A stretch of DNA of 64,000 bases from Candidatus Taenariivivens baikalensis (GCA_009691445.1 SICL01000001.1:65738-129737), one strand, 5' to 3'; counted from the first letter of the stretch, positions 21,649-51,163 are shown. The notes: generated by a model not told the origin, from the letters alone. Numbers and translations are program-made.

Positions 21649-21664
21649 AAGGTGCTCCGCCCGT

Positions 21665-22060
21665 TCAATGCTTTGTAGATTCTTGTTTTAAATGATCGGA
21701 ATACTGGTCTGCGGAAAGCAACTGATTCCAATCATCGTCATAAGACATATCAATTTCAAAAAACCAACCCTTGCCGTAGCACTCTTCATTGATAATTCCA
21801 GGGGCGCTTTCTAGACTCTGATTCACTTTAGAAACTTTTCCAGATACGGGGGCATAAATATCAAAGGCTGCTTTTACCGATTCGACGACTGCGGCAGGTT
21901 TTCCCCGCTCGATTTGCTGTCCCAATTTTGGTGTCTCGACAAAAACAACATCGGAAATTTCTTTTTGGGCATATTCTGTGATACCAACAATGACAATATT
22001 TCCCTCACGCTTCGCCCATTCATGCGTTTTTGTGTATTTTAAATCTTGCGGAATATTCAT
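21665..22060 (-). CDS. gcvH: Glycine cleavage system H protein
   Basis: 131 aa; lipoyl-lysine motif 'ESVKAA'. Confidence 0.9.
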   Translation of the reverse strand: MNIPQDLKYTKTHEWAKREGNIVIVGITEYAQKEISDVVFVETPKLGQQIERGKPAAVVESVKAAFDIYAPVSGKVSKVNQSLESAPGIINEECYGKGWFFEIDMSYDDDWNQLLSADQYSDHLKQESTKH

Positions 22061-22073
22061 AAAACTCCCAGCG

Positions 22074-23171
22074 TTATTCAGACTTCTTACGATGATAAAA
22101 TGGAATTGGAATTATTTTTGCTTTCTGCGGTCTATCACGAACCAGAATTTCAATTTCTTCATTAATCGCTGAAGATTCGATAGGGACATACCCGAGTCCA
22201 ATATTTTTTTGAAGCGTAGGAGAAACACCACCGCTTGTGACTTCCCCGGTTTTTTTTCCAGATTTTAAAATCGGATAACCTTGGCGCGGAATGCCACGGT
22301 CCATCATTTCAAATCCAATCAACTTCCGGGTGATTCCCTGCTCTTTTATTTTCAAAAGGATATCTCGCGCTACAAACTCAGTTTTAGTGAAATCAAGCGT
22401 CCATCCAATCCCGGCTTCAAGAGGATTAACTTCTTCATTCATATCATGACCATAAAGGAGCATAGCAGCCTCAAGGCGAAGAGTATCCCGAGCTCCAAAC
22501 CCTATCGGCTTCAAATCGGGATTCTGAAAACATCGGTCCCAAAGATGATTCAGCTCGGACTTATCAATCATAATTTCAAAACCATCCTCACCCGTATAGC
22601 CTGTTCGGGCAATCATTCCACCTTCAATCTCAATAAATCCATAATTAGAAAGCTGGGACAACTTTAGAGATGGGTATAATTGGTTAACCACTTGAAGCGC
22701 AAGAGGACCCTGAATCGCCAAAAGACCTTTGTTGTCGCTTTCGTTTGTTAAAAGCACATCCCCTGACAGGTTTGTTTTAAACCAAGCAAAGTCCTTCGCG
22801 ACATTACCCGCATTGACAATGATCCAAAAACGCTCGCTAGAAACTTTGTACACAATAATGTCATCAACAAATCCCCCGCGCTCATTTAAGAGGGGTGAAT
22901 ACAATGCTTTTCCAAGTGGGAGCTTCTTGATATTTCTGGGTAAAAGAAAATCAAGATAGGATTCAGCCCCCTTACCTGTAACAACGAACTCACCCATATG
23001 AGAAATATCAAAAAGTCCCGCCCTTTTCCGGACTTGTTCATGCTCCTCAAGAATACTGGTGTAGTAGAGAGGCACTTCCCACTCGCCAAAGACCCCGAAA
23101 CGCGCACCACGCTCCTCGTGCTTTTTATGAAGATACAAGGGGTATGTTTTTTCCGTCATTTGGGTGCTCAC
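22074..23171 (-). CDS. gcvT: Aminomethyltransferase (glycine cleavage T protein)
   Basis: 365 aa; GcvT family features. Confidence 0.9.
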   Translation of the reverse strand: MSTQMTEKTYPLYLHKKHEERGARFGVFGEWEVPLYYTSILEEHEQVRKRAGLFDISHMGEFVVTGKGAESYLDFLLPRNIKKLPLGKALYSPLLNERGGFVDDIIVYKVSSERFWIIVNAGNVAKDFAWFKTNLSGDVLLTNESDNKGLLAIQGPLALQVVNQLYPSLKLSQLSNYGFIEIEGGMIARTGYTGEDGFEIMIDKSELNHLWDRCFQNPDLKPIGFGARDTLRLEAAMLLYGHDMNEEVNPLEAGIGWTLDFTKTEFVARDILLKIKEQGITRKLIGFEMMDRGIPRQGYPILKSGKKTGEVTSGGVSPTLQKNIGLGYVPIESSAINEEIEILVRDRPQKAKIIPIPFYHRKKSE

Positions 23172-23224
23172 GAGGGCTACATTATAGGGATGAAGGTCGA
23201 AAATTCAATCGAAATAGGGCGGTA

Positions 23225-24475
23225 TTAAAAGTAAGCAAGAAACCAATCACGAGCAGAGACCACTATGCGTTTAAGAAAACCATTTGTCTGCATCATCTGC
23301 TTTTGCTCCTGATGCGAAGTGGCAATCCAGCGAAACATTCCCAGAGCATGTGTCATAGAAGGATCCACCAGAAGCTCGGTGGGTGCATCAACATGCTTGG
23401 TGAGGCCTATCCGGGCCACAAGAGAAAAATGCTTATAAAGGAACTCAATAAAGCCATCAATACTGGCGCCGCCTCCCGTAAAAATAAAGTGGGGGTAGTG
23501 TGAACCCTGCGCCTGAATAAAAACATTAACTTGGCCCAACAAGCCTGTGAGCCATTCCACGGCTATTTCCGAAAAAAGAGATTGAAACTCGGAGCGCTTG
23601 ATCTGGCGACTCTCTCTTCCATCGCGATTAATCAGCGGAATCAATTCATCCCGATTATCCGGAGGGACAAAAGCCGCATAGTTTTTTTTGAGTCTCTCAG
23701 CATCAAAGAGATCAATCCCTAAGCGTTCGGATAGCCGGGTATCAATTTGCTTTCCTCCAAAATCCAACATTCCACTGCTCATCACCGCTCCGTCCTTCCA
23801 AAAGAAAACCTCCGTATTTTCCGAAGTCATGTCCAGCACGAGGGCGCCCTGTGTTTTTTCAACATCCGATAGAACGGCCTGAGAAATGGTCAATCCCTTA
23901 GGGATATACCCCGTTACCTCAAGATCGCTGGAGTCAAAAACTTTCGAAAGATTTTTAAACTCCTGAAAATTCATTGTGAATATTTTTAGATTAACGCCCA
24001 ATCGCCGGGCCTCGAGGCCCATGGGATTACGCACACCCGAAACATCATCAACCATAAAGTTGTCGGGAAGTGTTTGGAGCACAAATTCCGAGAGAGGGAG
24101 GGTCGCAACGGTTCGTGTCTGCTGAATGACCGAGTGGATTTCGTCGCTGGTAATCAGGCGGATATCACCCTGATAATACTGAGAACTTTGAAATGAATAC
24201 TGGCGCAGCTTAAGATTTCCCAAGACGATCCAGGCTGCTATGATTGCCGAAGCATTATCAGGGAATAATTCTTTGAGCATTCCTTGGAGCGTTTTCGTCG
24301 CATCTCCCAGTTGACTGACTAAGCCCTGCTGAAAACCTTGAGGAATCTCCTTCTTGACATAGCGATTCACTCTGACATCCGTACCCTGGACGATCCCTTC
24401 CAGAACAATAAGATGCCGCATCCCCAGATAAACAACAACCTCAGATTCAACCTGCAAATGCCGTCCCATGATCAA
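23225..24475 (-). CDS. ftsA: FtsA-like actin-fold cell division protein
   Basis: Central 'NPMGLEARRLGVNLKIF...' and 'LDMTSENTEVFFWKDG...GGKQIDTRLSERLGI' and 'FIFTGGGASIDGF' align with FtsA. The N-terminal phosphate-1 region is atypical. 4-bp overlap with ftsQ. Confidence 0.75.
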   Translation of the reverse strand: MIMGRHLQVESEVVVYLGMRHLIVLEGIVQGTDVRVNRYVKKEIPQGFQQGLVSQLGDATKTLQGMLKELFPDNASAIIAAWIVLGNLKLRQYSFQSSQYYQGDIRLITSDEIHSVIQQTRTVATLPLSEFVLQTLPDNFMVDDVSGVRNPMGLEARRLGVNLKIFTMNFQEFKNLSKVFDSSDLEVTGYIPKGLTISQAVLSDVEKTQGALVLDMTSENTEVFFWKDGAVMSSGMLDFGGKQIDTRLSERLGIDLFDAERLKKNYAAFVPPDNRDELIPLINRDGRESRQIKRSEFQSLFSEIAVEWLTGLLGQVNVFIQAQGSHYPHFIFTGGGASIDGFIEFLYKHFSLVARIGLTKHVDAPTELLVDPSMTHALGMFRWIATSHQEQKQMMQTNGFLKRIVVSARDWFLAYF

Positions 24476-25275
24476 CCTTTCTTTTTAACAATGACATTTT
24501 CATATTGCAAATCAATGTAGGAAATTTTAGCACTTTCCTTATCCTCCAAAAGATGCGTCACCTTGTGAAGGGCAGAAATGCGAGAAGCGGGATGACGCCC
24601 GAGTTTAATTTCAGGACTATTTTGCAGAATCAAGTTCACATTTCCCTGAGCATCAAAAAGCAATTTTTGAACAGGGTACTTTTGAGCTAATGAAGACTCT
24701 GAATAAACACGCAAAAACTCCATGCATTCACGAAACCCTTTGTGGTGCAAACGCTGCCCCACACGAAGGTCAGCAGAATCGATAAACATGGCTTCGATAA
24801 GGACAAACGCTGGCGCTAACTCAGACATCACACGAAGAATCATTCCGTCTTCGGCAACAACACCATATTTTCCTCGGGCAGAAAACTTGATAAGCGCTGC
24901 AGGTATTCGCTTCTCAATATTCAAGGCCAAAGTGGAAGGAAAATGCCTCTCTACCGCTACGTTCTTAATCTCTGGATTTTTTTCCAAAATCTGTGATAAA
25001 TCATGAAGATTAATTTCAAGGATATGTCTACCGATGAATTTATTTTCCAATGCTGTTCTCTCGGCGACAGGCAAAGAAAGCGGGGGCTGAACCGTCAGAT
25101 ATTTCACTTCAAAAAAAGTATCCGCGTAGAGTGCTTTCCGCAGACCAAAGAAAATCCCGAGTCCAGCCACGAGAACGAGAAAAGGTGGGAAAAGAGAAAT
25201 AATTAAACGTCCAAAATACGAAAAGTATCCCAGAGCGTTATTTTTCTTTCTACTTCGTTTTGACTTTTTTGACAC
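24472..25275 (-). CDS. ftsQ: Cell division protein FtsQ/DivIB
   Basis: N-terminal basic tail plus single TM, then POTRA-type domain. Position between ddl and ftsA. Confidence 0.8.
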   Translation of the reverse strand: MSKKSKRSRKKNNALGYFSYFGRLIISLFPPFLVLVAGLGIFFGLRKALYADTFFEVKYLTVQPPLSLPVAERTALENKFIGRHILEINLHDLSQILEKNPEIKNVAVERHFPSTLALNIEKRIPAALIKFSARGKYGVVAEDGMILRVMSELAPAFVLIEAMFIDSADLRVGQRLHHKGFRECMEFLRVYSESSLAQKYPVQKLLFDAQGNVNLILQNSPEIKLGRHPASRISALHKVTHLLEDKESAKISYIDLQYENVIVKKKG

Positions 25276-26251
25276 GGTGACTCGTTAAAGGTTTTCGTCG
25301 GATGGCCAACGAAACAAGGCGACAACACAAAGCTTCAAAAGATAAACCGCATGCTTTCGCAGCTTTAGGCAACAGACTAAATTCAGTAAATCCTGGTATA
25401 GAATTAGCTTCGAGCACAAATGGATTTCCAGCTCGATCCACCTTGAGATCAATTCGAGATAGGTCCCGAAGGCCTAAAGCTTTATGCGTCCTTGTGGCAA
25501 TGTTTTGCAACTTGCGGGCAAAAGATACCGATATTTCTGCTGGTACAATATAATCGGTCATTCCTGAGGTATATTTAGCCTTAAAGTCATAAAAAAGCGA
25601 CTTAGGTCGAAGTTCCACAACCGGCAATGCTTTCTGGCCGAGAATTCCAACCGTATATTCAGCCCCTTCCAAGGTACGTTCGGCCATAAGCTCGCCATAG
25701 ACTTGCAGACGGGCCTTGATTTTTTTGAGCGTTGACGGACTAAGGATTGACACGGAAAGAATGCCAATACTGGATCCTTCTCGAGGCGGTTTAATGAAAC
25801 ACGGGCATCCAAATTTTTTAAGCGCTTCCTGCCAGCGGGAACCTCGTTGAAGAATAATAAAAGGCGCCGTTGGGATCCGACGCTGAATCAATATGCGTTT
25901 TGTTTTAATTTTGTCATAAGCAAGTCGACTGGAATTAGCGCCGGAGCCCACATACGGCTTTCCCCGCTTCTCCAGCCATTCTTGGATGGTGCCGTCTTCC
26001 CCACCGGCACCGTGTAAAGTTAAAAACGCAATATCAATAGAATTTACGAGCCGACTGACCTGCGCGGGTTTCGCGGGATCAAGTTCAGAAACGCAGTAAC
26101 CTGAACGTTTCAATGCCTGAATCACAGCGTGGCCTGAGCGTTTTGAAATTACGCGCTCTGATGAGGTTCCGCCGCAAAAAACGCCGATGCGATGTGATTT
26201 AGACAAAGATAACTTCGGTTTCGAGGGCAAATCCAGTCCCATCAAAAACAA
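25250..26251 (-). CDS. ddl: D-alanine--D-alanine ligase
   Basis: 333 aa ATP-grasp; N-terminal 'RIGVFCGGTSSERVIS' typical of Ddl. Confidence 0.9.
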   Translation of the reverse strand: MFLMGLDLPSKPKLSLSKSHRIGVFCGGTSSERVISKRSGHAVIQALKRSGYCVSELDPAKPAQVSRLVNSIDIAFLTLHGAGGEDGTIQEWLEKRGKPYVGSGANSSRLAYDKIKTKRILIQRRIPTAPFIILQRGSRWQEALKKFGCPCFIKPPREGSSIGILSVSILSPSTLKKIKARLQVYGELMAERTLEGAEYTVGILGQKALPVVELRPKSLFYDFKAKYTSGMTDYIVPAEISVSFARKLQNIATRTHKALGLRDLSRIDLKVDRAGNPFVLEANSIPGFTEFSLLPKAAKACGLSFEALCCRLVSLAIRRKPLTSHRVKKVKTK

Positions 26252-27143
26252 CCTTTTTCACTTGATGAATCAATTCAACAAAATCAGAACTTTTTGCACG
26301 ACCCAAATTAACCATATAATTCGCATGTGCCGGTGAGATCATAGCATCCCCAATCCGCATCCCTTTCAACCCAAACTGATCGATTAACTTCCCCGCAGAA
26401 ACACCAGGAGTCGGATTTTTAAAAATAGATCCGGAGCTGGGGTACCGTACGTCCTGTTCCTGGGTACGATAATCAAAATTGGCCCGAATCTCCCTATCGA
26501 TATCCTCATTGCGACCGTGCCACAAACGAAAAGAAGCCGAGAGAATAATTTTCCCTTTAAGACTAGATTGGCGGTACGAAAAGGACAACTCGTTTTTCTG
26601 GAGGGTTTGTTTTTTTCCATCCTCGCTAATAATCGTCACGTCATTAACAATATCCCCAATTTCATTCGGCTGCCCCGGATGACGGCTAAATCCAGCATTC
26701 ATCGCCAGAGCTCCGCCCACCGACCCTGGAATAGTCGATAGAAACTCAACGCCACCGAGGTTCCGATCCCGGCATGCGGTCGCAAGCCGGGATAGCTGAG
26801 TGCCTGCCGAGCAATGGACGATAGGAAAATCTGGATCAAATAGAATATTCCCATTCTGAAAACGATTCATGGAGATAACGACGCCCTGATATCCGGCATC
26901 TGGGAAAATAAGGTTTGAACCGCGGCCTAAAAGTATGTAGGGCAGTTTTTCACTCTTTGCAAAATGGACAGCTTCAAAAACATCATCCTCGGTCAAAGGC
27001 TCAATAAAATATGCAGCCGGCCCTCCCACGTGCATCGTTGTGCAGCGGGAAAGATCAACCTTACGCCGTAACAGTGGTTTTGTGTCTGTCCGAAAACTCA
27101 TTGGCAAGATCTCCGATATCACCCGCTCCCAGAAAGGCGACAA
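26199..27143 (-). CDS. murB: UDP-N-acetylenolpyruvoylglucosamine reductase
   Basis: FAD-binding 'LGRGSNL' region. Start uncertain (overlaps murC 3' end). Confidence 0.85.
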   Translation of the reverse strand: MSPFWERVISEILPMSFRTDTKPLLRRKVDLSRCTTMHVGGPAAYFIEPLTEDDVFEAVHFAKSEKLPYILLGRGSNLIFPDAGYQGVVISMNRFQNGNILFDPDFPIVHCSAGTQLSRLATACRDRNLGGVEFLSTIPGSVGGALAMNAGFSRHPGQPNEIGDIVNDVTIISEDGKKQTLQKNELSFSYRQSSLKGKIILSASFRLWHGRNEDIDREIRANFDYRTQEQDVRYPSSGSIFKNPTPGVSAGKLIDQFGLKGMRIGDAMISPAHANYMVNLGRAKSSDFVELIHQVKKVVFDGTGFALETEVIFV

Positions 27144-28470
27144 CTCCGGAAAGATTTAGGCGAGATGATAAATATAAAGAAACTTTTTCTTTAGCGATAA
27201 AATGAACCGAGGGATGACCGAGCCTTATCAATTCATCGTGAATCTTCTGAGTTGAAATATGAGTTTCATTATTTTCACCGGCCCCATAAATGTCCGTCAG
27301 AATCAGATCATCCGTATCACGAAGAGCATGGGCGAATTCTTTGAAAAAACGCTGCGTTCTTGTGTATCGGTGCGGCTGAAAAATGACCGTCAGCTTACGG
27401 TTGTAAACCCTCAACGCCTTAATTGAAGCCAGCACCTTGGTTGGATTATGTGCGTAATCATTGATAATCATCAAATGATCAGATTGATATTTTACTTCCA
27501 ATCGCCTCGTCGCTCCGTGAAAGCGTGACAGAGACTCGGAAATACTATCCAGATCAAGGCCTAAATAGTGAAGAAGGGCAATGGAAGCAAGGGCATTGGA
27601 TACATTATGAAGACCAATCAGGCACAGCCGAAACTCGGTAGAAAAGACGCCGCATACATACAAATCAAAAATTGTGCCGCTAGGGGCAAGCCTAATATTT
27701 TGTGCGGAAAAATTCGCGGCAGAAGAAAATCCGAAACTCAGATGAGGCTTACCCGATTTCAAGGACAAATTCTTAAGATCAGGATCATCCTCGGAATAAA
27801 CAACAAGCCCAGGATCATGCAGATTCTGCAGAAATCGCTGAAATGAATCCTGCAAATCCTGAGTTCCTGTGTAATGGTCCACGTGATCTTCTTCAAGATT
27901 TGTAACGATCGCATAATTTGGTGCGAAAAGTTCGTGAGTTTTATCACTCTCATCGACTTCAGACACGTAAATCCCAGAGTGCCCCAGCAATGCATTGGTT
28001 CCAAAATCCACCAGATCTCCACCGATCAGGCAAGTGGGATCTTTTCCCCGATCATGTAAAACGAAGGAAACCATTGCGGATGTTGTGGTTTTGCCATGAG
28101 TTCCTGTTATCGCAACCGAAATGTTGGCTGAATTAAAAAAAGAAGAAAGGACGGCAGCCCTGTGAAATATATTCCGTCCAAACTGTTTGGCGGCGGCAAA
28201 CTCCACATGATTTTCATGAATCGCGGAAGAATAGACGACCAAATCAACGGCCGGATCAAAATGCGGCTCTTCTTGGCCAATATAGACCGAAATCCCCAAA
28301 TCTAAAAGTTGACGTGTCGCTAGGGTTTCCTTCAGATCAGATCCGGAAACTTTAACTCCGTTGTGGTGGAGTAATTTCGCCAGAGCACTCATCCCCGCCC
28401 CGCCGATTCCAATGAAATAGGCACTTCTCGCGTTTTGAATCTGGTGATTATCACTCAACCTATTGATCAT
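27061..28470 (-). CDS. murC: UDP-N-acetylmuramate--L-alanine ligase
   Basis: 'FIGIGGAGMSALA' and Mur ligase central motif 'GTHGKTTTS'. Confidence 0.9.
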   Translation of the reverse strand: MINRLSDNHQIQNARSAYFIGIGGAGMSALAKLLHHNGVKVSGSDLKETLATRQLLDLGISVYIGQEEPHFDPAVDLVVYSSAIHENHVEFAAAKQFGRNIFHRAAVLSSFFNSANISVAITGTHGKTTTSAMVSFVLHDRGKDPTCLIGGDLVDFGTNALLGHSGIYVSEVDESDKTHELFAPNYAIVTNLEEDHVDHYTGTQDLQDSFQRFLQNLHDPGLVVYSEDDPDLKNLSLKSGKPHLSFGFSSAANFSAQNIRLAPSGTIFDLYVCGVFSTEFRLCLIGLHNVSNALASIALLHYLGLDLDSISESLSRFHGATRRLEVKYQSDHLMIINDYAHNPTKVLASIKALRVYNRKLTVIFQPHRYTRTQRFFKEFAHALRDTDDLILTDIYGAGENNETHISTQKIHDELIRLGHPSVHFIAKEKVSLYLSSRLNLSGVVAFLGAGDIGDLANEFSDRHKTTVTA

Positions 28471-29569
28471 ATTTGAATCCTGCTAATTGTCTCGCTAACT
28501 TAACAAGCCCACAACCCGCGTCCGGCATTGCCAAACTTCGCATTTTATCGGCCATTGGTTCTAAGGCGGAAAATGATCGCATTAGTAAACGTATCTTTTC
28601 TAAAACTAGACCGGGGACTAAATCTCTTTCTTGCGCGCACCAAGCTGCGCTGCGATTTTCAAAGAAACGCGCATTCAAGAGTTGATGCCCTCCCGCATAA
28701 GGATAAGGAATCAAAAGTGCTGGAATCCCAAAATAAGAAAGTTCGAAAAGTGTATTCGCACCTGCGCGTGATATTGCAAAATCTGTATTTAAAAAAATCT
28801 CATCCATTCTATCAAAAAAAGAAAACACTTGTGCTCGTATTTTTACTTTTTCATACGCGCACCGCACTTCGTTCCAATCTTGTTTCCCTGCGATATGATT
28901 AACGACAAGCTTATCCTTTTCTTCATCCGATAATTCAGAAAGAGCTTGCACGACAGTCTTATTAATCCAATGTGCTCCCTGGGATCCGCCCATTACGAGC
29001 AACCGCAAGCAATGAGGATCAGTCGTCATCACTTTAGAGCGCCACCCGCCTGTCTGAAGAATATGAGTTTTAAGCGGAAGACCGACATGAAACACTTTTG
29101 ATGCCGGAATATTTGGAAATGTATCGGGAAACGAGGTGGCAATTATATCTGCATGCGGAACAAGCCAGGAAGTAGCGCGGCCTGGACGGGCATTCTGTTC
29201 GTGAATAAGCGTAGGTATTTTTCTTCGATGCGCTAGAACAATTCCGGGGTACGACACGTAGCTTCCAAACCCAATGCAGACATCGGGTTTCATTTGATTC
29301 AGTATCCGGGAAGTTCGTGAAAAAGCATCGAAAAGCTTTTTCGTAAATAAAAACCAAGATAAGGAAATCCCGGAAGGAGATGGGAAAGATGGAAGAAAGT
29401 GAGTTGTTTCAAATAAATCTGTGAATTTCCCTTGAAGAAAGGGGCGTGCCTTTTCGCTCGTAATCAGAGTAATACGGCTTTGAGGGAAACTCAGCTTGAG
29501 ATTTTCACTAAATCCAATGCAGGGAAAAAGATGACCTCCGGTATGCCCCGAAAGAACTAGAACGTTCAA
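28460..29569 (-). CDS. murG: Undecaprenyldiphospho-muramoylpentapeptide beta-N-acetylglucosaminyltransferase
   Basis: GT28; N-terminal 'SGHTGGHLFP'. Confidence 0.9.
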   Translation of the reverse strand: MNVLVLSGHTGGHLFPCIGFSENLKLSFPQSRITLITSEKARPFLQGKFTDLFETTHFLPSFPSPSGISLSWFLFTKKLFDAFSRTSRILNQMKPDVCIGFGSYVSYPGIVLAHRRKIPTLIHEQNARPGRATSWLVPHADIIATSFPDTFPNIPASKVFHVGLPLKTHILQTGGWRSKVMTTDPHCLRLLVMGGSQGAHWINKTVVQALSELSDEEKDKLVVNHIAGKQDWNEVRCAYEKVKIRAQVFSFFDRMDEIFLNTDFAISRAGANTLFELSYFGIPALLIPYPYAGGHQLLNARFFENRSAAWCAQERDLVPGLVLEKIRLLMRSFSALEPMADKMRSLAMPDAGCGLVKLARQLAGFKYDQ

Positions 29570-29572
29570 TGA

Positions 29573-30679
29573 TCACCTGCTGCGATGGAGATGCTTTTCC
29601 GCACTCATAATCAGCCCCAAAGCCATAAAATTAAAAAGAAGTGAAGTCCCACCGAAGCTCACGAATGGAAGTGGAAGACCTTTCGTTGGAACCAGCCCTG
29701 TCGTGACTAGCATGTGAATGATGGCCTGAAGGACAATCATCAACGTTAAGGCTATAATTAAAAGACGTTGAAAAGAATCGGAAGCTTTCTTGGCAAGTTC
29801 CAGTCCCGATAAAAAAATCGTCACATAAAGAGCCATCACGGCGAGGACACCGACTATTCCCAATTCTTCAGCAATGATCGAGAAAATAAAATCGTTATAA
29901 CTCGACGGGAGATAAAAAAGTTTCTGCATGCTTTGCCCCAACCCTACTCCTTTGAGGGAACCAAGCCCAAAGGCTAAAAACGATTGGATGATTTGAAACC
30001 CATTTCCTTGCGGGTCATTCCAGGGATTGAGATACGCACTGAGACGGCTCAACCGGTACGGAACCCTGACCACCAACATGTAAAAAATGGGAATCACCAC
30101 CGAGGCAGCAACACCCACATACCACATTCTGAGCCCTGCTAAAAAAATTAGCGATGCAACAATAAGAAAGATAAAAGCCGTTGACCCTAAATCAGGTTGA
30201 AGAAGTGTTAAGACACACGTAATCCCCACTAAAACAAGCGGTGGAAAAAAAACCTTCAGACTGCCCTCATAAATCATCTTGCGCTTCCGAGTTAAGTAGT
30301 CAGCAAGATAAATACAAACCGCGATTTTGGCAAACTCTGCAGGCTGAAATTTAATCATCCCGAGATTGATCCATCTCTTTGCTCCGCCTGCGGTGTGTCC
30401 AATATGCGGAATAAAAACAAGAAATAAAAATCCGATGGAAAACAACATGAGAGCAAGAGCATGCCGTTTCCAAAATTGCAGCGGGACCGCTGCGGTCACG
30501 AACATCAGACCCGAACCTAAAAGGGCGTACAAGATTTGCCGGACTAGAAAGTGCTGGGGGTTCTGGTAGAGGTAATCTGCATAAACAGCGCTCGTGCTGT
30601 AGGTCATCACAATCCCCAGACCAACGAGCAGATAGATACAGGTAAAAAGAACTTTGACCGGATTCCATCGCAGCTTCAT
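29573..30679 (-). CDS. ftsW: SEDS-family peptidoglycan polymerase FtsW
   Basis: Ten-TM SEDS protein between murD and murG. Confidence 0.85.
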   Translation of the reverse strand: MKLRWNPVKVLFTCIYLLVGLGIVMTYSTSAVYADYLYQNPQHFLVRQILYALLGSGLMFVTAAVPLQFWKRHALALMLFSIGFLFLVFIPHIGHTAGGAKRWINLGMIKFQPAEFAKIAVCIYLADYLTRKRKMIYEGSLKVFFPPLVLVGITCVLTLLQPDLGSTAFIFLIVASLIFLAGLRMWYVGVAASVVIPIFYMLVVRVPYRLSRLSAYLNPWNDPQGNGFQIIQSFLAFGLGSLKGVGLGQSMQKLFYLPSSYNDFIFSIIAEELGIVGVLAVMALYVTIFLSGLELAKKASDSFQRLLIIALTLMIVLQAIIHMLVTTGLVPTKGLPLPFVSFGGTSLLFNFMALGLIMSAEKHLHRSR

Positions 30680-31956
30680 GAAGCGTGGATCGATCGTAGG
30701 GATTTATCAGCCCACTCAAAAACTTTTTCTTTAAAAAAAATCCCTCGGGCTTGATAATTTTTAAACTGATCAAAACTAGCACAGGCTGGAGAAAGGAGGA
30801 TCTGATCGCCCGCCGCGGCGAGTCCCGCTGCTTGATGAAAAGCTTCCGATAAATCATTCACGGCCATCATAGGACAGGCTCCCTTCCACGCTTCATAAAT
30901 ACGTTCTGCGGATTCCCCAAAAACAAACGCCTGTTTTACTTTTTTTTGAAGCAGTGGTTTCAAAATATCAAAATCGCTCGATTTTGCGCGGCCACCCGCA
31001 AGCAAAATCACCTGTTGATCCGCGTATCGCTCCAGAGCATAAGCCAAGGAAAGGGGCGTGGTGCATTTGGAATCATTGACGAAGGTGACTCCGCGATGAA
31101 CAGCCACTTGCTCCAAACGATGTTCAATGCCTTTGAACTCCGCAATGGTTTTGTCGACGGTGTTTTCAGGAAATTTCAAAAAGCGGGCAAGAATTCGAAG
31201 AACCCTTTCAATCCCTGGAAGATTCTCCTCGCGATCAAATTCTACTGTTTGAGCTTGAAAGTATTGCTGAGGAAAATAGCCTTTCCGGTCCCGGGATTGA
31301 AAAACGGCAAGATCTTCCACGTCTTGATTATGAAAAAGTTTCAGCTTCGACAAAACATACTCCTCCTGGGTACCGTGCCAGTCCAAATGATTCGGACTAA
31401 TATTTAGAAGAATTCCAATCTGCGGGTGAAACTGGCTGCAAGAAAAAAGCTGAAAGGAACTGACTTCGATAACAACAAAATGCTGCGGGGTAATTCTTGC
31501 GAGCTCCCCGATCCATGGATTTCCGATATTCCCACAAGAAATGACAGGTTGGTTATTGTTTTGAAGCCACTCCGTAATGATCGTCGCCGCCGTTGTTTTT
31601 CCAGCAGTTCCAGTTATGGCAATAATCTTTCGCGAGACACAAAAGCGACTGGCCACTTCAATTTCACTTAAAATTGGTTTTTGATAGCGTCCGAGGTCTC
31701 TATAAATGTCAGTGAAAGGCGATATTCCTGGGGAAATCATCACCCAATCAGACAAAAGTATTTTCTCCAAGGAGTGCCGACCAAGTTCGGTTTCAATCCC
31801 CTGGGAATGCAACTGCTGATTAAGCTCCTGAGTTTCAGCGTTACTGCGCATTTCAGAAACAAACACCTCAAATCCGTGCTGTTTAAGAAAAAGGGCAGTC
31901 TGGACACCACTGATTCCCATACCAAGAATCGCTGCCTTTTTACCTAGAGCGATCAT
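30676..31956 (-). CDS. murD: UDP-N-acetylmuramoylalanine--D-glutamate ligase
   Basis: N-terminal Rossmann 'ILGMGISG', Mur ligase 'GTAGKTT'. Confidence 0.9.
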   Translation of the reverse strand: MIALGKKAAILGMGISGVQTALFLKQHGFEVFVSEMRSNAETQELNQQLHSQGIETELGRHSLEKILLSDWVMISPGISPFTDIYRDLGRYQKPILSEIEVASRFCVSRKIIAITGTAGKTTAATIITEWLQNNNQPVISCGNIGNPWIGELARITPQHFVVIEVSSFQLFSCSQFHPQIGILLNISPNHLDWHGTQEEYVLSKLKLFHNQDVEDLAVFQSRDRKGYFPQQYFQAQTVEFDREENLPGIERVLRILARFLKFPENTVDKTIAEFKGIEHRLEQVAVHRGVTFVNDSKCTTPLSLAYALERYADQQVILLAGGRAKSSDFDILKPLLQKKVKQAFVFGESAERIYEAWKGACPMMAVNDLSEAFHQAAGLAAAGDQILLSPACASFDQFKNYQARGIFFKEKVFEWADKSLRSIHAS

Positions 31957-33045
31957 TTAGCGCACCTTCATGGTCGCAAGACCAATCACCGAGAGGATCA
32001 TCGAAATAATCCATAAGCGAATAGTCACTTTAGATTCAGGCCACCCTTTAAGCTGGAGATGATGATGAAAGGGCGACATCAAAAAAACTCTTTTCCCAGT
32101 TAATTTAAAACTAGCCACCTGAATCATCACTGAAAGGGCTTCCCATACAAATATTCCCCCAACAATAATTAGAACAAATTCCTTTTTTATTAGAAGGGCA
32201 ATGGTTCCAAGTGCTGCCCCAAGAGCAAGCGACCCCGTATCTCCCATCATGACTTCAGATGGATAACTATTGAACCACAAAAATCCTGCGCTGGAACCAA
32301 CCAACGCTCCACAAAACACAGCAATCTCTCCCCCTTCGGGAATGAGGGGCAGGGAAAGATAGGTGGCAAAATCAACCCGTCCAACAAAGTAAGCAATTAT
32401 TCCCAGCGATGCCGTGGTAAAAAGCGTACATCCGATTGCAAGACCGTCCAGTCCGTCGGTTAGATTGAGCGCATTCGAAGATCCGGTAAGCACTAAAACG
32501 GTGAAGGGAATGTATAGCCACCCCAAATAAACAAAACTATTTTTTAGAAATGGCAAATAAAGCCATCGATCAAAAGCTGGGTCAAAGAAGAGATAAACTC
32601 CAATAAAAAGCGCCATTCCGACTTGGCCTAATATCTTAGCCTTCGAGCTGATCCCATGCGAACTCTTGGATTTTAACTTGATCCAGTCATCGATGAAGCC
32701 AACTCCGCCGAACCAGATCATCGTCAAAAGAAGCAACCACACATATCGATGGGTTAAATTCCCCCAAAGAAGCATCGAGGACACAACGCTTGAAACAATC
32801 AACAGCCCGCCCATCGTAGGAACATTTTTCTTTCCCGCGTAGAGGTGATGAATTTTTTGGGCATGCTCTCTTTCCGTATGATTCACAATCCTAATCTTCT
32901 TGAGCCATTCAATCAGGGAAGGACCCAGCCACAAACAGAAAAGAAATGACGTGACACTCGCCGCAGCCGCACGAAAAGTGATGTAGCGGAAAAGATTAAA
33001 AAAAATCGAGACATCTTTAAGCGGATATAAAAAATAAAACATCAT
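31957..33045 (-). CDS. mraY: Phospho-N-acetylmuramoyl-pentapeptide transferase
   Basis: 362 aa polytopic; MraY family motifs (NxxNxxDGxDGL). Confidence 0.9.
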   Translation of the reverse strand: MMFYFLYPLKDVSIFFNLFRYITFRAAAASVTSFLFCLWLGPSLIEWLKKIRIVNHTEREHAQKIHHLYAGKKNVPTMGGLLIVSSVVSSMLLWGNLTHRYVWLLLLTMIWFGGVGFIDDWIKLKSKSSHGISSKAKILGQVGMALFIGVYLFFDPAFDRWLYLPFLKNSFVYLGWLYIPFTVLVLTGSSNALNLTDGLDGLAIGCTLFTTASLGIIAYFVGRVDFATYLSLPLIPEGGEIAVFCGALVGSSAGFLWFNSYPSEVMMGDTGSLALGAALGTIALLIKKEFVLIIVGGIFVWEALSVMIQVASFKLTGKRVFLMSPFHHHLQLKGWPESKVTIRLWIISMILSVIGLATMKVR

Positions 33046-33079
33046 CGTCCTCTAGGTCAAGAAAATATGGGAATAAAAC

Positions 33080-34495
33080 CTAAGCCTGGTTGAAGGGCGG
33101 TCCAAACTTCTCCTCAAAGACTCTCAGAACTTTATCCATCGACATTCCCCGGGACGCCTTGAGCAAGATGTCATCGCTTGACTGAACCTGCCCCAGCAAA
33201 AAATCAGCGGCTTGCTCGCGTCCTTGAAAATAAGCCGTGCGCACTTTCCCCTTAAACTCTGAATCCAGAATATCCACGGTTGATTTCGACAAGGGACCAT
33301 ACGCCACAACAACATCAAAGGAATGGCTGCCGATACATCGCCCCAAAACCTCATGGAATTTCTTCTCTTCATCCCCCAATTCCAGCATATCGGCAATGAC
33401 TACAATTTTTCTTCGCCGGTCCGGCATCGCAGCAAAAGCCTCGAGGGAACGACGAAAGGAGCTTGGGCTCGCATTATAACTATCATCAATAACTCTGATG
33501 TCATTTGCGTAAAGACGCTCCTGAAAACGACCCTGCGGCATCTCCAGTCCTTCCCATTTTTCCGGCATTTCACCGATTGGCAATCCCAAAGCCTCCGCAG
33601 CCGCAACCGCCATGGCAGCATTTATGCTGAGGAATGTGGCGATTCCAGGAAAATAAAATTTTCGAGAATGATTGAGCCAAAAAGATATCCATTTTCCCTC
33701 CCGCTGAGCATCAGAAATCTGATAATCGGCCATCATCGAGTATCCAACTGTAATAACCTTCAATCGAAGTTTTTTTGCTCTCGCAATTAAAACATTGTCG
33801 TGTTCCGGCAAAATCATCGCCGCGCCCTGTGCAAGCGCTTGCATCAGCTCACATTTGGCATCGTAAACTCCCCTTAAAGTTCCGAACCCCTTCAAATGAG
33901 CCGGCGCTATTTGTGTGATCATCCCAAGATCGGGCTTTAAAATGGCGCAAAGCTCACGGATATCACCAGAATGATTGGCGCCTAGCTCCGCGACGCAAAA
34001 ACGATGAGCCGTCTGACGGCGAAATAAAGTCATCGGCAGTCCGAGTTGATTATTAAGATTGCCTTCCGTCGAAAGCGTGGGGGATTTATGGCGCAGCAAA
34101 TGCGCTAAAAACTCCTTCGTGCTTGTTTTTCCAACGCTCCCGGTAATCGCAATAGCCTTCATGGATTGGGAATCTCGATACCAGGTCGCAAGCTGGGAAA
34201 ACGCCTGCGACGGTTGTAATACCGGAAGAAGATTTTGAAATACCGTAGGATTGCTTTGAAATTTCAAACGGTGGAGAGAAAAATAATCCTGGTCGATCAG
34301 GGCACCGGACGCCCCCTTCAAAAAAGCGTCTTCTAAGTAATGGTGGCCGTCATCCGAATTGGTTTTGATCGCAACAAAAAGATTGCCGGGTTCGAGTTTG
34401 CGGGTATCAATAGCAGCGCCCTGGATAAGGATAGAGGAATTGCCCATTTGGCATTCCACGCCCAAAACACTACTCGCATCACGAAAAGAAAACAC
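33080..34495 (-). CDS. murF: UDP-MurNAc-tripeptide--D-Ala-D-Ala ligase
   Basis: 'ITGSVGKTSTKE' Mur ligase P-loop; position in cluster. Confidence 0.9.
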   Translation of the reverse strand: MFSFRDASSVLGVECQMGNSSILIQGAAIDTRKLEPGNLFVAIKTNSDDGHHYLEDAFLKGASGALIDQDYFSLHRLKFQSNPTVFQNLLPVLQPSQAFSQLATWYRDSQSMKAIAITGSVGKTSTKEFLAHLLRHKSPTLSTEGNLNNQLGLPMTLFRRQTAHRFCVAELGANHSGDIRELCAILKPDLGMITQIAPAHLKGFGTLRGVYDAKCELMQALAQGAAMILPEHDNVLIARAKKLRLKVITVGYSMMADYQISDAQREGKWISFWLNHSRKFYFPGIATFLSINAAMAVAAAEALGLPIGEMPEKWEGLEMPQGRFQERLYANDIRVIDDSYNASPSSFRRSLEAFAAMPDRRRKIVVIADMLELGDEEKKFHEVLGRCIGSHSFDVVVAYGPLSKSTVDILDSEFKGKVRTAYFQGREQAADFLLGQVQSSDDILLKASRGMSMDKVLRVFEEKFGPPFNQA

Positions 34496-35969
34496 GCTGA
34501 TCCTTCTTTAGACACGATTGGACAACCTTGCGGTCATCAAAGGGGATTTTTACGTCGCCAAGAATTTGATAATCTTCGTGGCCTTTCCCGAGAATGAGGA
34601 TGACATCATCCAATTGAGCAAGAGATAAGACTTTTTGAATCGCTTCACGCCTATCTGAAATGGTATGGATCATAGGACCGGACCCATCAGTCTGCGGTTT
34701 ACCAATCCCCTTCTGAATATCCCGAATAATCACACTGGGATCTTCCGTGCGTGGATTATCGGAAGTCAGTACTAAAATATCGGAATAGTGAGCGGCGATC
34801 TTGCCCATCAAAGGCCGTTTGCCTTTATCTCGGTCACCTCCGCAGCCAAACACTGTAAGGATACGCTTGGGATTTAATCGTCTGGTTTGAGACAAAACAT
34901 TTTCAAACGCATCGGGTGTATGCGCATAATCCACAAAAATCTGATACCCGTCCACCCCTGACACACGCTCCATACGGCCCGGAATTCCTGGAATCTCCTG
35001 CAAGGCACCGCGGAAATCTTCGGGATCATAACCCAAAATATCTAATGCGGCCAAAACCTCAGCCACATTGTAAATATTGTGAGTAAAAGGAAGCCGAATC
35101 TGAAACGGAACTTCGCGTCCCTTGAAGCATAGGCTGAAGCGGCTGCCATGAAAACTGAGATCCACCCCCTTGACCTCATAATCAGCGGCCGCCGTAAGAC
35201 TTAATGTTTTAGCATTAGGATAACTTTTATGAAGTCTCTTCCCATAAGCGCAATCAGTATTAATCAGCATATGTCTGGGGTGAGGCACTTGATCAAAGAA
35301 AAGTTTTTTAGCGCTAAAATAGTCTTCCATGCTCTTATGGTAATCCAGATGATCTTGTGTCAGTTGAGAAAAAATAGCCAGTTCAAAACCTAATCCATAG
35401 ACACGTTTTTGATGCAGCGCATGAGATGAAACCTCCATAATGCAAGTCTTAACTTCTTCCTTGACCATGTCATTTAAAAGAGGAATTAAAACTTCGGGAC
35501 CCGGTGTGGTGTTCGTTGCCGCCAGTTTTTGATGAGGCAGATCGTACCAAAGCGTCCCCAGATACGCGGAGCGGGTATGCTCGCGAATCAGCAAATGCAG
35601 TAAATATGAAATCGTGGTTTTTCCATTAGTTCCCGTCACACCAATCAATTTTATTTTCTGATCGGGATACCTGTAATAGGCTCGGAGGAGCTGAGGCAGA
35701 CATTCATTTGCATTGGCAACTTGAACACCAATAATGGCGGGGGGAATAATCGCCTCAGGAAGATTTTCATAAACAATGACCGAGGCTTTCGCTTGAATGG
35801 CCTGTGAAAGAAAATCGTGGCCATCCATGCGGGCACCACGGCAGGCGACAAAAACATCTCCGGGCTCAATTAGCCTGGAATCTGATGTGATCCTCCCAAC
35901 GTTCAGATTCGGATGCCAATTTCGTTTTTCGAGTATCGGAACATCCTCGAACAGTTGAGTTACTCTCAC
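34479..35969 (-). CDS. murE: UDP-MurNAc-L-Ala-D-Glu--2,6-diaminopimelate (or Lys) ligase
   Basis: 'GVTGTNGKTTISY' and the C-terminal domain. Confidence 0.9.
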   Translation of the reverse strand: MRVTQLFEDVPILEKRNWHPNLNVGRITSDSRLIEPGDVFVACRGARMDGHDFLSQAIQAKASVIVYENLPEAIIPPAIIGVQVANANECLPQLLRAYYRYPDQKIKLIGVTGTNGKTTISYLLHLLIREHTRSAYLGTLWYDLPHQKLAATNTTPGPEVLIPLLNDMVKEEVKTCIMEVSSHALHQKRVYGLGFELAIFSQLTQDHLDYHKSMEDYFSAKKLFFDQVPHPRHMLINTDCAYGKRLHKSYPNAKTLSLTAAADYEVKGVDLSFHGSRFSLCFKGREVPFQIRLPFTHNIYNVAEVLAALDILGYDPEDFRGALQEIPGIPGRMERVSGVDGYQIFVDYAHTPDAFENVLSQTRRLNPKRILTVFGCGGDRDKGKRPLMGKIAAHYSDILVLTSDNPRTEDPSVIIRDIQKGIGKPQTDGSGPMIHTISDRREAIQKVLSLAQLDDVILILGKGHEDYQILGDVKIPFDDRKVVQSCLKKDQRVFFS

Positions 35970-35989
35970 AGCGAGGTCCTCGGCTTAAA

Positions 35990-36439
35990 TTATTTGATTG
36001 AAAAATTAAATGTTGGCGAATGGGCTTCCAGATAACCGATATCGAGAATTTTCTTTTGATCAAAGGTTAAATCGGCCCGTAACTGTGTTAAAGAAACGTT
36101 GCCGCGCCCCTGGATTTTCGCCCAATCTCCCAGCAAATAGATCACAGCATTATCACTTTGAATCTGAATATGCCACTTTCCATGAGTAAGAAAATACGCC
36201 AAATCGTAGCGCAGGTCAAGATCTCCTGAAATAAACTTCACCCTATCTTTCCAGATAAAATTAGCTTGGTTTATTTGAAATCGCGATTGAAACACTGACG
36301 GCACCAAAGCACCCTGCATCTGAAGTCCAATTCGTGTTTGAATATCCTTAAAAACAAGAACTTTGATGCCGAGTGACAGGCTAATTAGAACCAAGATAAA
36401 AAAAAGAAACCCTTCAGCAATTTTTTGACTATTTTTCAT
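35990..36439 (-). CDS. Hypothetical bitopic membrane protein (N-terminal TM, periplasmic domain)
   Basis: 149 aa, single N-terminal TM. Occupies the ftsI/ftsL slot upstream of murE. No PBP motifs. Confidence 0.4.
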   Translation of the reverse strand: MKNSQKIAEGFLFFILVLISLSLGIKVLVFKDIQTRIGLQMQGALVPSVFQSRFQINQANFIWKDRVKFISGDLDLRYDLAYFLTHGKWHIQIQSDNAVIYLLGDWAKIQGRGNVSLTQLRADLTFDQKKILDIGYLEAHSPTFNFSIK

Positions 36440-36644
36440 AGGGCGCGGGAGATGAAGAAGTAATCATCCTTGCTCGATGAGGCTGCGGCACATGCGCTGA
36501 TCGGTCCAGCTCCACATTGAGTCTAGAAATCTCCTGATTGAGAGCATCAATCGTTGCCGCCTGTTTTCTGTTCATTTCCATCAAAGCTCCATCCGACGCA
36601 CACCCTGAATATAGAAAAACCAATAACAAAATTCTCCAGCGCAT
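36429..36644 (-). CDS. Small coiled-coil lipoprotein (Lpp-like or FtsL/FtsB-like)
   Basis: 71 aa; signal/lipobox-like 'LLLVFLYSGC', coiled-coil 'NRKQAATIDALNQEISRLNVELDRS', C-terminal Lys (…PYEK). Confidence 0.4.
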   Translation of the reverse strand: MRWRILLLVFLYSGCASDGALMEMNRKQAATIDALNQEISRLNVELDRSAHVPQPHRARMITSSSPAPYEK

Positions 36645-38194
36645 TAGATAGCCCCCTCAAGTTGTTTTTTTTGATTCCGAATAGCCTTAATCTTTTCCAT
36701 CATATGAAACCGCCGAATAACAGAAAGAAAACAGTCCACCACATGGGGATCAAACTGAGTACCCCGATTGACCTTAATTTCTTCGATTGCTGCTTCAACC
36801 GATAAAGAAACCCGATAGGCGCGGTGCGAGATCATTGCCACCAAGGAATCAATGACCGCGATAATCCTAGCACCGATAGGAATTTCATCCCCCCTCAAGC
36901 CCTGAGGGTATCCCTTTCCATCATATCGTTCCCTGTAGTGAGTAAGAATAGGAATGTAGGGTCGAAGTGACTTCATAGACCTCAGCAAATTAGCACCGCG
37001 AATAGGAATCTGTTTGATCATGTTAAATTCACGTTTAGTGAGCTTGCCTTTTTTCTTCCAAAAAGATCCCGGAGATAGCAGGACTCCCGCATCCAAAAGC
37101 ATCACAGCTCTTTCAAGAATGATGAGATCTTTGGGGGGAAGCGCAAGCTCAAGGCCCACTTCTTTAATCAAATCCACCATTAATGGAAACTCCAAAGGAT
37201 GACGCGAAATATTCGAAGCTAAAAGCTCGCTAATGGCCTTGATGCTTCCTAAGGTAAGCTGTTCGGTCTCTTCGTAAAGCTGAGCATTCTTGATTGCCAC
37301 CACGGTTTGTTCAGAAAGTGATTTTAGGATTTCTAAATCAGTTTTGGTGAACGGCAAGCGGCCAATCTTATCCCAAAGGGCGATCGTCCCCACTACGTCG
37401 TCTTCAATAAAGGGAACGGCGATGGCATTGCGGTTAAAGTGAAACTCCCCGGTTTTAGCAATCCGGCCCGGAATTCCTCGCCCAATCTTGAGCCTGTGTT
37501 TGGGAACCAATCGCGGATGCGGGAGTGTCGAGAAAAAAGGCAATAAATATTCATGTTCTGCATCACAGAGCATAATCGAACACCCCTTCGCTTTAAGAAC
37601 TTGTGTGCTTAAGCGCGCGATTCGGGGCAGGAGTTCATTGAGACGCAGCGAAGTACTAATCACACGATGAACTGAGTGCATCGTCGAAAGCGCCAACGCG
37701 CGCGGGTGAACCGTTTCATAAAAATTGTTCAGTTCAAAGGTGCGGAACGCCAAATCCACTTGCGCAGCGAGAAAAAAATTAAGAGGTTTAATGAAAAATT
37801 CAAATTTTCTCTGTGGTCCGTGAAGAGAAGTTAAAAGTAAAAACCCTTTCAGATTTCCAACGTGGGTTAATGAAAATATAAGACAGTGCCTTCCAAAGGC
37901 ATCCTTAAAAAACAAGGGGAACTTATCAACGTAATTACTATCAAGCGCATAAATCCCACAAAATTTCTTAAGAAAATCTTCAATACTACGCTGATTAGAT
38001 TCAGATGCGGCATAAAAGGAACAATGATCCTTCCGGTCCAGGCGAATAAGTCGATCCTCGGAAAATTCATCAATGAGATATACCCATCCGAGCGAACTGC
38101 CAAATAGCTCATTAAAAGCGCTGTAGCCCTCCTGCCACTCCGGGCTTTTCAGCATAAAGCGTTCTAAGATGGTTTCGCGCTTTCCTGATTTCAT
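36644..38194 (-). CDS. GAF-domain protein with degenerate HD-GYP domain
   Basis: C-terminal 'HYRERYDGKGYPQGL' (HD-GYP signature), but 'LLDAG' stands where the canonical 'LHDIG' is expected. N-terminal GAF-like region. Confidence 0.65.
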   Translation of the reverse strand: MKSGKRETILERFMLKSPEWQEGYSAFNELFGSSLGWVYLIDEFSEDRLIRLDRKDHCSFYAASESNQRSIEDFLKKFCGIYALDSNYVDKFPLFFKDAFGRHCLIFSLTHVGNLKGFLLLTSLHGPQRKFEFFIKPLNFFLAAQVDLAFRTFELNNFYETVHPRALALSTMHSVHRVISTSLRLNELLPRIARLSTQVLKAKGCSIMLCDAEHEYLLPFFSTLPHPRLVPKHRLKIGRGIPGRIAKTGEFHFNRNAIAVPFIEDDVVGTIALWDKIGRLPFTKTDLEILKSLSEQTVVAIKNAQLYEETEQLTLGSIKAISELLASNISRHPLEFPLMVDLIKEVGLELALPPKDLIILERAVMLLDAGVLLSPGSFWKKKGKLTKREFNMIKQIPIRGANLLRSMKSLRPYIPILTHYRERYDGKGYPQGLRGDEIPIGARIIAVIDSLVAMISHRAYRVSLSVEAAIEEIKVNRGTQFDPHVVDCFLSVIRRFHMMEKIKAIRNQKKQLEGAI

Positions 38195-51108: not shown

Positions 51109-51114
51109 GAGGAG

Positions 51115-51143: not shown

Positions 51144-51163
51144 CAAAAGAGACAGCAATGTCT

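Follow-up and report, generated by a model that had tools for sequence, protein, structure and literature searches.

Introduction

FtsZ is a near-universal bacterial division protein, and FtsA normally anchors it to the membrane. In Escherichia coli, FtsA also recruits and activates late divisome proteins through its subdomain 1C and forms membrane-bound filaments (structures 7q6f and 7q6i). The means by which bacteria divide without FtsZ have long been in question and have been studied mainly in Chlamydiae and Planctomycetes. These lineages (Chlamydiota and Planctomycetota) lack ftsZ and keep peptidoglycan genes together with ftsW, ftsQ and ftsK-type genes (PMC5147048, PMC8178401, PMC10066038), but they have also lost ftsA (PMC8178401, PMC12283558). 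Here we describe the division and cell-wall (dcw) cluster within a 64,000-nt stretch of DNA, hereafter the window, from Candidatus Taenariivivens baikalensis (GCA_009691445.1, SICL01000001.1:65738-129737). We assign this uncultured organism to Omnitrophota, a phylum that belongs to the same superphylum as the Chlamydiota and Planctomycetota but that, unlike them, keeps ftsA in its canonical position after ftsQ.

In its canonical form the dcw cluster reads mraZ-rsmH-ftsL-ftsI-murE...ftsQ-ftsA-ftsZ. The murE-to-ftsA core of the window keeps this order and is co-directional and tightly packed, whereas both of its ends differ. In particular, a GAF/HD-GYP gene and two open reading frames (ORFs) of 71 and 149 aa stand 5′ of murE where the canonical cluster has mraZ-rsmH-ftsL-ftsI, and a glycine-cleavage (gcv) operon begins 53 bp beyond ftsA where the canonical cluster has ftsZ. 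Both differences are conserved across the order Omnitrophales. Seymour et al. (2023) reported that Omnitrophota lack ftsZ, in agreement with the cluster described here, which ends without it; neither the dcw cluster nor FtsA is described in the main text of that study. We consider it likely that this is the core operon for division and the cell wall in the form that is normal for, and typical of, Omnitrophota, with ftsZ lost and the 5′ block separated; division in these bacteria would then be FtsZ-independent, with FtsA as a proposed scaffold.

Results

The cluster stops with ftsA, next to the glycine-cleavage operon

Genes in the window were mapped by ORF calling together with scans against Pfam and NCBIfam. 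We found murE, murF, mraY, murD, ftsW, murG, murC, murB, ddl, ftsQ and ftsA in canonical order, all on the minus strand and each confirmed by Pfam, with intergenic spacings of -83 to +34 nt. The last gene of the cluster, ftsA (23225..24469; Pfam FtsA, E = 8.2e-14; SHS2_FTSA, 1.5e-10), lies 2 nt beyond a divergent ftsQ (24472..25275; POTRA_1, 1e-7; FtsQ_DivIB_C, 2.7e-5). Its ATG start agrees with the public gene call; an alternative TTG start, two codons upstream, was rejected after an exact-protein look-up of the longer product found no match in public records. Downstream of the ftsA stop, a 53-bp spacer (23172..23224, minus strand) leads to gcvT (22074..23171), the first gene of the gcvT-gcvH-gcvPA-gcvPB operon for the glycine cleavage system (18809..23171, minus strand; GCV_T, 3.2e-82; GCV_H, 6e-39; GDC-P, 1.5e-122; GcvP2_C, 4.7e-30), so that the gcv operon sits in the usual place of ftsZ. 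From the HD-GYP gene through ftsA to uvrD, neighboring genes overlap or are separated by no more than 34 nt with the exception of this spacer, which is the widest gap of a 22-kb co-directional array.

The window has 57 non-overlapping ORFs that reach 90 aa. Pfam scans of the 54 largest detected no tubulin/FtsZ, transpeptidase/penicillin-binding protein (PBP), MraZ or RsmH domain; the other three ORFs are of 97-245 aa. A first-pass annotation of the stretch, made from its sequence, had described the murE-to-ftsA gene order, a gcvT operon rather than ftsZ 53 bp after ftsA, a GAF/HD-GYP gene with two small envelope ORFs upstream of murE, and no ftsI, rsmH or mraZ next to murE; the sequence and the domain scans bear out this description, including the lack of PBP, RsmH and MraZ domains in the scanned ORFs and of any FtsZ match in the window. 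Furthermore, a 75.8-kb ENA contig and a Logan contig, assembled independently for this organism, have the same junctions at either end, which indicates that neither the ftsA-gcvT nor the HD-GYP-murE junction is an artefact of assembly.

When an alignment-based FtsA profile was run against a genome collection with one genome per GTDB species, 52 related loci were recovered, all of which have ftsA directly after ftsQ; a scan of the same collection with the single protein recovered no relative. For counts at the 3′ end we used the 42 non-redundant related loci with at least 600 nt of sequence downstream of ftsA. In 33 of these, ftsA is followed by gcvT-gcvH-gcvPA-gcvPB, and the remaining 9 carry different genes after ftsA, for example a convergent DEAD-box helicase gene. 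The ftsA-gcvT junction is also seen in L056, and it persists in a locus with an FtsA that has no more than 29% identity to that of the window. Where the sequence reaches beyond gcvPB, lplA and then uvrD follow, usually with a conserved ORF of ~140 aa between them, as in the window. The ORF in question is there 142 aa long (17690-18118, minus strand), has no Pfam match and is flanked by the lipoate-protein ligase gene on one side and by uvrD/pcrA on the other, an arrangement that is syntenic in most related loci.

Searches for ftsZ itself were made by tblastn with two FtsZ queries, an E. coli FtsZ sequence and the FtsZ of L061, a canonical locus that served as a positive control. In L061, ftsQ-ftsA is followed by a gene with Tubulin and FtsZ_C domains, which the E. 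coli query matched at 2e-74. Neither query had a match in the window or in 59 Omnitrophota loci (~1.02 Mb in total; best E-values 0.25-1.1), and in the 42 relatives ftsZ was never found within 10 kb of ftsA. The end of the cluster at ftsA is thus no accident: it is a conserved feature of the lineage.

Some relatives carry ORFs between ftsA and gcvT, which we considered as candidates for a divergent FtsZ and rejected: neither FtsZ query matched them, and by eye most of the larger ones look like other proteins. In two loci (L044:11235-14251 and L046:11191-14255) the insert, judged by eye, comprises genes for an MlaC-like periplasmic protein and an MMPL/RND-type transporter, and in a third (L049:3452-4078) an MlaC-like gene only; further inserts appear by eye to encode an AAA ATPase and a 476-aa protein of no recognized type.

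The ftsA-gcvT spacer of the window contains a σ70-like match, TTGAAT-16 nt-TATAAT, at 23208..23181 on the minus strand, which is recognized solely by its agreement with the consensus at 10 of 12 positions. These 53 bp hold no hairpin of terminator type. A promoter match without a terminator suggests that the gcv operon is probably driven by its own putative promoter, possibly with read-through from ftsA. The 64-kb window gave no Rfam match, and thus no glycine riboswitch before gcvT.

Between ftsQ and the 5′ end, the core of the cluster comprises, in the direction of transcription, murE (34479..35969; Mur_ligase_M, 2.1e-42; Mur_ligase_C, 5.2e-35), murF (33080..34495; Mur ligase domains), mraY (31957..33045; Glycos_transf_4, 5.7e-32), murD (30676..31956; MurD_N and Mur ligase domains), ftsW, which encodes a SEDS glycosyltransferase (29573..30679; FTSW_RODA_SPOVE, 4.5e-106; TIGR02614, 394.9 bits against a cut-off of 337.5), murG (28460..29569; N- and C-terminal Glyco_transf_28 domains), murC (27061..28470; Mur ligase domains), murB (26199..27143; MurB_C, 1.7e-29; FAD_binding_4, 4.2e-21) and ddl (25250..26251; Dala_Dala_lig_C, 1.4e-44). 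With the HD-GYP gene at its head and ftsA at its end, this tightly packed operon thus provides for lipid II synthesis, the SEDS polymerase FtsW, FtsQ and a divergent FtsA. About a dozen relatives lack murB from the cluster, murC being followed there by ddl (L015, L021, L024, L026, L029, L030, L032, L034, L038, L033 and L059); the window and the remaining relatives have murB between these two genes.

A conserved HD-GYP and small-ORF module precedes murE

The gene that opens the array encodes a GAF/HD-GYP protein of the cyclic di-GMP (c-di-GMP) phosphodiesterase type (36644..38194, minus strand; HD_5, 6.8e-30; GAF_2, 1.9e-8). Its stop codon overlaps the start of the 71-aa ORF (36429..36644, minus strand) in the sequence TAATG, and the 71-aa ORF in turn overlaps the 149-aa ORF (35990..36439, minus strand) by 11 nt. 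Neither small ORF has a Pfam or NCBIfam match; the 71-aa ORF is called as a gene in both the ENA and the Logan records. Given this arrangement, translation of the HD-GYP gene may be coupled to that of the small ORFs ahead of murE, and its location, in the position usually held by mraZ/rsmH, is a hint that cell-wall synthesis might be controlled in a c-di-GMP-linked manner.

We examined the upstream region in three relatives reached through their MurE homologues: L057 (GCA_964385615.1), L058 and L059 (GCA_022705945.1). The order common to all three is AAA_16 ATPase, HIT protein, GAF/HD-GYP, OmpA-type lipoprotein, an ORF of ~155 aa and murE; an HD dGTPase-like gene is added in L057 only, and an ORF of 53-61 aa in L057 and L059. 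No PBP, MraZ or RsmH Pfam domain was found within 10 kb upstream of murE in any of the three. The altered 5′ end of the cluster is thus conserved in relatives and is no accident.

The 71-aa ORF of the window is a truncated version of the lipoprotein. It has a lipobox-like N terminus (LYSGC) and a short coiled coil, and by blastp it is 41-48% identical (E-values 1e-8 to 4e-11) to the OmpA proteins of L057 and L058, matching their N-terminal part. Those OmpA-domain lipoproteins are 208-213 aa long (L057:8862-9503, L058:8872-9498) and are possibly Pal- or MotB-like; L059 has a short version of 96 aa (L059:9081-9371). The peptidoglycan-binding OmpA domain is missing both from the window's ORF and from the L059 protein.

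The 149-aa protein (EXS63_00510), which has a predicted N-terminal helix, is encoded directly before murE in the window as well as in all three relatives examined upstream, and is 24-31% identical to its syntenic homologues in L057-L059. On sequence evidence it is a member of a lineage-restricted family, for which 1.84 billion proteins yielded 111 representative clusters, each of ~145-175 aa. No relative of the family was found in Pfam, with 67 members scanned, or in the PDB by profile search, and a word-based homologue search with the 149-aa protein gave one relative only. An AlphaFold2 (AF2) model of the protein made from two sequences was unusable, with a mean predicted local distance difference test (pLDDT) score of 47.5.

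Further upstream, at 41682-43028 on the minus strand, lies a gene that fuses a response-regulator receiver to a CofD/YvcK-family domain and that occupies the same position relative to murE in L057 (2274-3620). It adjoins genes for a HAMP histidine kinase and an OmpR-type regulator (43202-45354).

The retained FtsA has the FtsA fold and remodelled phosphate-binding motifs

We asked how the product of ftsA compares with FtsA proteins of known structure. A profile built from the clade of the window's FtsA matched the FtsA structure 7q6g over its full length when searched against the PDB (E = 4e-47), and an AF2 model of the protein reached a pLDDT of 88.4 and a predicted template-modelling score (pTM) of 0.85. 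In a Foldseek search with this model the best hits were the FtsA structures 7q6g, 7q6f, 7q6d and 4a2a (TM scores 0.78-0.84), followed by PilM (0.56-0.73) and MreB (~0.5). The model has an actin-like fold in which the 1C (SHS2) subdomain is present, and the 2B region, which in canonical FtsA is the subdomain that binds the FtsZ peptide, is also present and of normal length. Profile and model together indicate that the product is a genuine FtsA homologue. Like the solved FtsA proteins (7q6g/7q6f/7q6d, 4a2a and 3wqt), it combines this fold, including the 1C insertion, with a TGGG motif and a conserved C-terminal tail; unlike canonical FtsA, to which it is ~20% identical, it has altered phosphate-1 and phosphate-2 motifs and no FtsZ encoded nearby.

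The divergence is substantial. Clade members are on average 20% identical to canonical FtsA (maximum 25.7%), compared with 35% among canonical proteins and 45% within the clade, and the window's protein scores 147 bits against NCBIfam TIGR01174, under the cut-off of 175.85, and is named a hypothetical protein at NCBI. We compared motifs between 78 clade members, all full length (395-440 aa), and 36 canonical FtsA proteins; the canonical consensus was drawn from the retrieved sequences, and an E. coli FtsA sequence served as the numbering reference. All 36 canonical proteins have the aspartate of the phosphate-1 (DxG) motif; among the 78 clade members the position holds tyrosine in 66 and phenylalanine in 7. 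The phosphate-2 motif, D-I-G-G-G-T in canonical FtsA, reads D-[IV]-[AST]-[DE]-[DE]-x-T in the clade, with the first glycine of the GGG kept in only 6 of 78, and the adenosine-binding TGGG motif is retained. The replacement of the phosphate-binding motifs suggests that ATP handling has been changed or lost.

The clade also has near-invariant motifs of its own, namely SSSQYYQG, QTRSVATLPL, ELIPL and the C-terminal ...ARDWF..YF, which argues for purifying selection rather than decay. In the conserved C-terminal tail (ArdWF..YF), Y413 and F414 are invariant, and the AF2 model places a low-confidence helix there. A membrane-targeting role for this tail is plausible.

The source organism belongs to Omnitrophota

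The FtsA of the window is identical to the NCBI entry 'MAG: hypothetical protein EXS63_00455 [Candidatus Omnitrophica bacterium]', MAG standing for metagenome-assembled genome. Approximately 80 FtsA homologues are 32-49% identical to it; all that are named to phylum are Omnitrophota, one is labelled 'bacterium' and most are unnamed. Beyond these, one intermediate homologue (29% identity, 165 bits) is followed by a steep fall to canonical FtsA of other phyla (98 bits, 28% identity). The named MurE homologues among the best 120 listed are Omnitrophota or unclassified 'bacterium', and the organism-named loci among the 52 from the profile scan are all Omnitrophota MAGs. The named relatives RIFOXYB12_FULL_50_7, GWA2_52_8, UBA1443, UBA2337 and AM-2014-D6_bin-627 belong to the class Omnitrophia, order Omnitrophales, families UBA2337 and GWA2-52-8; their genomes measure ~1.4-2.4 Mb and are as much as 99-100% complete (PMC10066038 Supplementary Table). 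The phylogenetic placement that the first-pass annotation had called for is supplied by the NCBI label and by FtsA and MurE relatives named to phylum: the organism is assigned to Omnitrophota and, judged from its named relatives, to class Omnitrophia and order Omnitrophales.

Published surveys report Omnitrophota without ftsZ

Among 421 Omnitrophota genomes, Seymour et al. (2023) reported no ftsZ save one archaeal-like contaminant, which is 89% identical to an archaeal protein, and they placed OLB16, an 'Omnitrophica' genome that encodes ftsZ, outside Omnitrophota (PMC10066038 Supplementary Notes 1-2). A figure legend of Pende et al. (2021) lists FtsZ as missing in Planctomycetes, Omnitrophica and Chlamydiae, with FtsA and SepF also absent from Planctomycetes and Chlamydiae (PMC8178401). 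In the supplementary data of the same study, FtsA is present and FtsZ is given as NA for Ca. Omnitrophus magneticus, RIFOXYB12_FULL_50_7 (our locus L017) and SM23_29 (PMC8178401 Supplementary Data 2), and OLB16 is the only Omnitrophica listed with FtsZ. FtsZ and FtsA go unmentioned in the main text of Seymour et al. (2023) and in a preprint of 2026 that covers 176 closed genomes of the phylum (10.64898/2026.06.07.730766). Taken together, the phylum surveys and the local synteny provide lineage-level evidence that ftsZ has probably been lost.

The missing 5′ genes appear to have fared differently from ftsZ. KEGG lists for two other Omnitrophota genomes (PMC10066038) both contain K03587 (ftsI), K03438 (rsmH), K03925 (mraZ) and K03589 (ftsQ), as well as K03569 and K03570 (mreB, mreC), K05515 (mrdA) and K05837 (rodA); one of the two adds K03588, K03590 and K05589 (ftsW, ftsA, ftsB), and K03531 (ftsZ) is in neither. 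By analogy with those genomes, ftsI, mraZ and rsmH are probably relocated in the genome. The first-pass annotation had offered two alternatives, that the missing genes lie elsewhere or that the divisome is modified. For ftsZ, the phylum surveys and the 42 relatives favor a modified divisome; for ftsI, mraZ and rsmH, the KEGG lists make a location elsewhere the more likely. Both answers hold at the level of the lineage.

Papers on division in the Planctomycetes-Verrucomicrobia-Chlamydiae (PVC) superphylum (PMC5147048, PMC12283558) and genomic studies (PMC10066038, PMC8178401) conflict on the FtsZ status of Omnitrophota, a conflict apparently unaddressed in print.

Other features of the window

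Two further gene groups lie away from the cluster. A BatD-domain protein (7843-9807, minus strand) flanked by TPR proteins resembles part of a Bat-type (aerotolerance-like) operon and lies upstream of trpA/trpB. At 49289-53223 are grouped genes for a 508-aa TPR protein, a PqqD-like protein, a GNAT acetyltransferase and an NTP_transf_5 nucleotidyltransferase; the pairing of PqqD with NTP_transf_5 recalls loci for peptide modification (ribosomally synthesized and post-translationally modified peptides, RiPPs). A tRNA scan gave no match in the window.

Discussion

The reading that we favor, in which the murE-ftsA cluster is the lineage-typical core operon of Omnitrophota, would account for both ends of the locus as follows. 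Loss of ftsZ in the phylum would have left the cluster ending at ftsA, abutting the glycine-cleavage operon, and the mraZ-rsmH-ftsL-ftsI block would have been split off, with the GAF/HD-GYP gene, the OmpA-type lipoprotein gene (truncated in the window) and the gene for the ~150-aa protein in its place. Division would then be FtsZ-independent, and a membrane-associated FtsA, no longer a tether for FtsZ, would instead serve FtsQ and the septal peptidoglycan synthase FtsW-FtsI as a scaffold or regulator in the cytoplasm. Other Omnitrophota genomes encode MreB, and it may have a part in division here, as in Chlamydiae. A more specific version of this scheme, which we advance only tentatively, is that Omnitrophota have an FtsA-centered divisome in which FtsA with remodelled motifs organizes or activates FtsQ and FtsW-FtsI, that the OmpA-type lipoprotein, the 150-aa protein and the c-di-GMP phosphodiesterase are co-transcribed with the core in replacement of ftsL/ftsI/mraZ/rsmH, and that this arrangement represents a third FtsZ-less solution within the PVC superphylum.

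Several points weigh against this reading. The role proposed for FtsA is one that we infer, and the replaced phosphate-binding motifs could mean that classical FtsA activity has been lost. The hydrophobic moment of the FtsA tail, 0.37, is reached by 23% of shuffled sequences, so that the tail is not significantly amphipathic. The absence of ftsZ from the source organism rests on phylum-level MAG surveys together with local synteny, and a very divergent tubulin-fold protein could escape the hidden Markov model (HMM) marker sets used in such surveys. Finally, Omnitrophota have been treated as FtsZ-positive or dcw-complete in two publications (PMC5147048 and PMC12283558), the former relying for its FtsZ-positive view on OLB16.

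It is conceivable that FtsA in this lineage is a relic, or that it has been repurposed outside division, for example in a PilM-like or other membrane-scaffold role. The change of the phosphate-1 aspartate to tyrosine or phenylalanine in 73 of 78 clade members, the rarity of the first phosphate-2 glycine (6 of 78) and the TIGR01174 score under the cut-off would all fit such a fate. However, the protein is strongly conserved in the clade and has many invariant motifs specific to it, the aligned members are all full length (395-440 aa), the gene always follows ftsQ immediately, within a compact dcw operon, and the fold is nearer to FtsA than to PilM. We regard this explanation as unlikely.

Less likely still, and to much the same degree, are two explanations that would restore a partner to FtsA. 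In the first, the cluster has merely been split by a simple rearrangement and ftsZ lies elsewhere in the genome. The 5′ genes do seem to be relocated in Omnitrophota, dcw clusters in the PVC superphylum are often fragmented (PMC12283558), and the window in which we looked for ftsZ covers 64 kb of a genome of ~2-2.5 Mb, to judge from the size of related MAGs. Against this, no ftsZ was found across the Omnitrophota genomes of Seymour et al. (2023), which include MAGs of the same order that are 96-100% complete, Pende et al. (2021) recorded FtsA without FtsZ in three Omnitrophica genomes, and the sole FtsZ-bearing 'Omnitrophica' genome is misclassified. In the second, FtsA is partnered by a hidden functional replacement encoded elsewhere in the genome, either a very divergent protein of the tubulin/FtsZ fold or a non-homologous filament. 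The FtsA, FtsQ and small proteins of the clade are themselves very divergent, FtsA to the point of falling under the NCBI cut-off, and marker-set surveys use fixed HMM thresholds; yet FtsZ is among the most conserved of bacterial proteins, in none of 42 species was there a candidate less than 10 kb from ftsA, and no positive evidence for such a protein was found.

That the ftsA-gcvT or the HD-GYP-murE junction is a chimera of assembly or binning, a concern with any locus taken from a MAG, is effectively refuted by conserved synteny, the junctions being repeated in the ENA and Logan assemblies, in 33 of 42 other species at the 3′ end and in three upstream loci at the 5′ end, with an even G+C content across the window.

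That Omnitrophota lack ftsZ is already known, although the published statements are confined to one supplementary note and one figure legend (PMC10066038, PMC8178401), and reviews of PVC division still count the phylum as FtsZ-positive, largely through the misclassified OLB16. New here are the order-wide conservation of both truncated ends of the cluster, the identity of the upstream replacement module and the systematic remodelling of the nucleotide-binding motifs of FtsA. With the core fact already in print, the increment is a moderate one. FtsA without FtsZ is an under-explored condition.

The lineages in which FtsZ-less division has mainly been studied have lost FtsA as well. Omnitrophota represent a different intermediate, in which FtsZ is gone and FtsA, FtsQ and FtsW are kept in an intact operon. 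The altered ATP-binding motifs of this FtsA lead to a specific biochemical hypothesis, one that recombinant protein would suffice to test, with no need to culture the organism, and the Omnitrophota case as a whole separates the tethering of FtsZ by FtsA from the other functions of the protein, namely the recruitment and activation of the septal synthase and the formation of membrane filaments.

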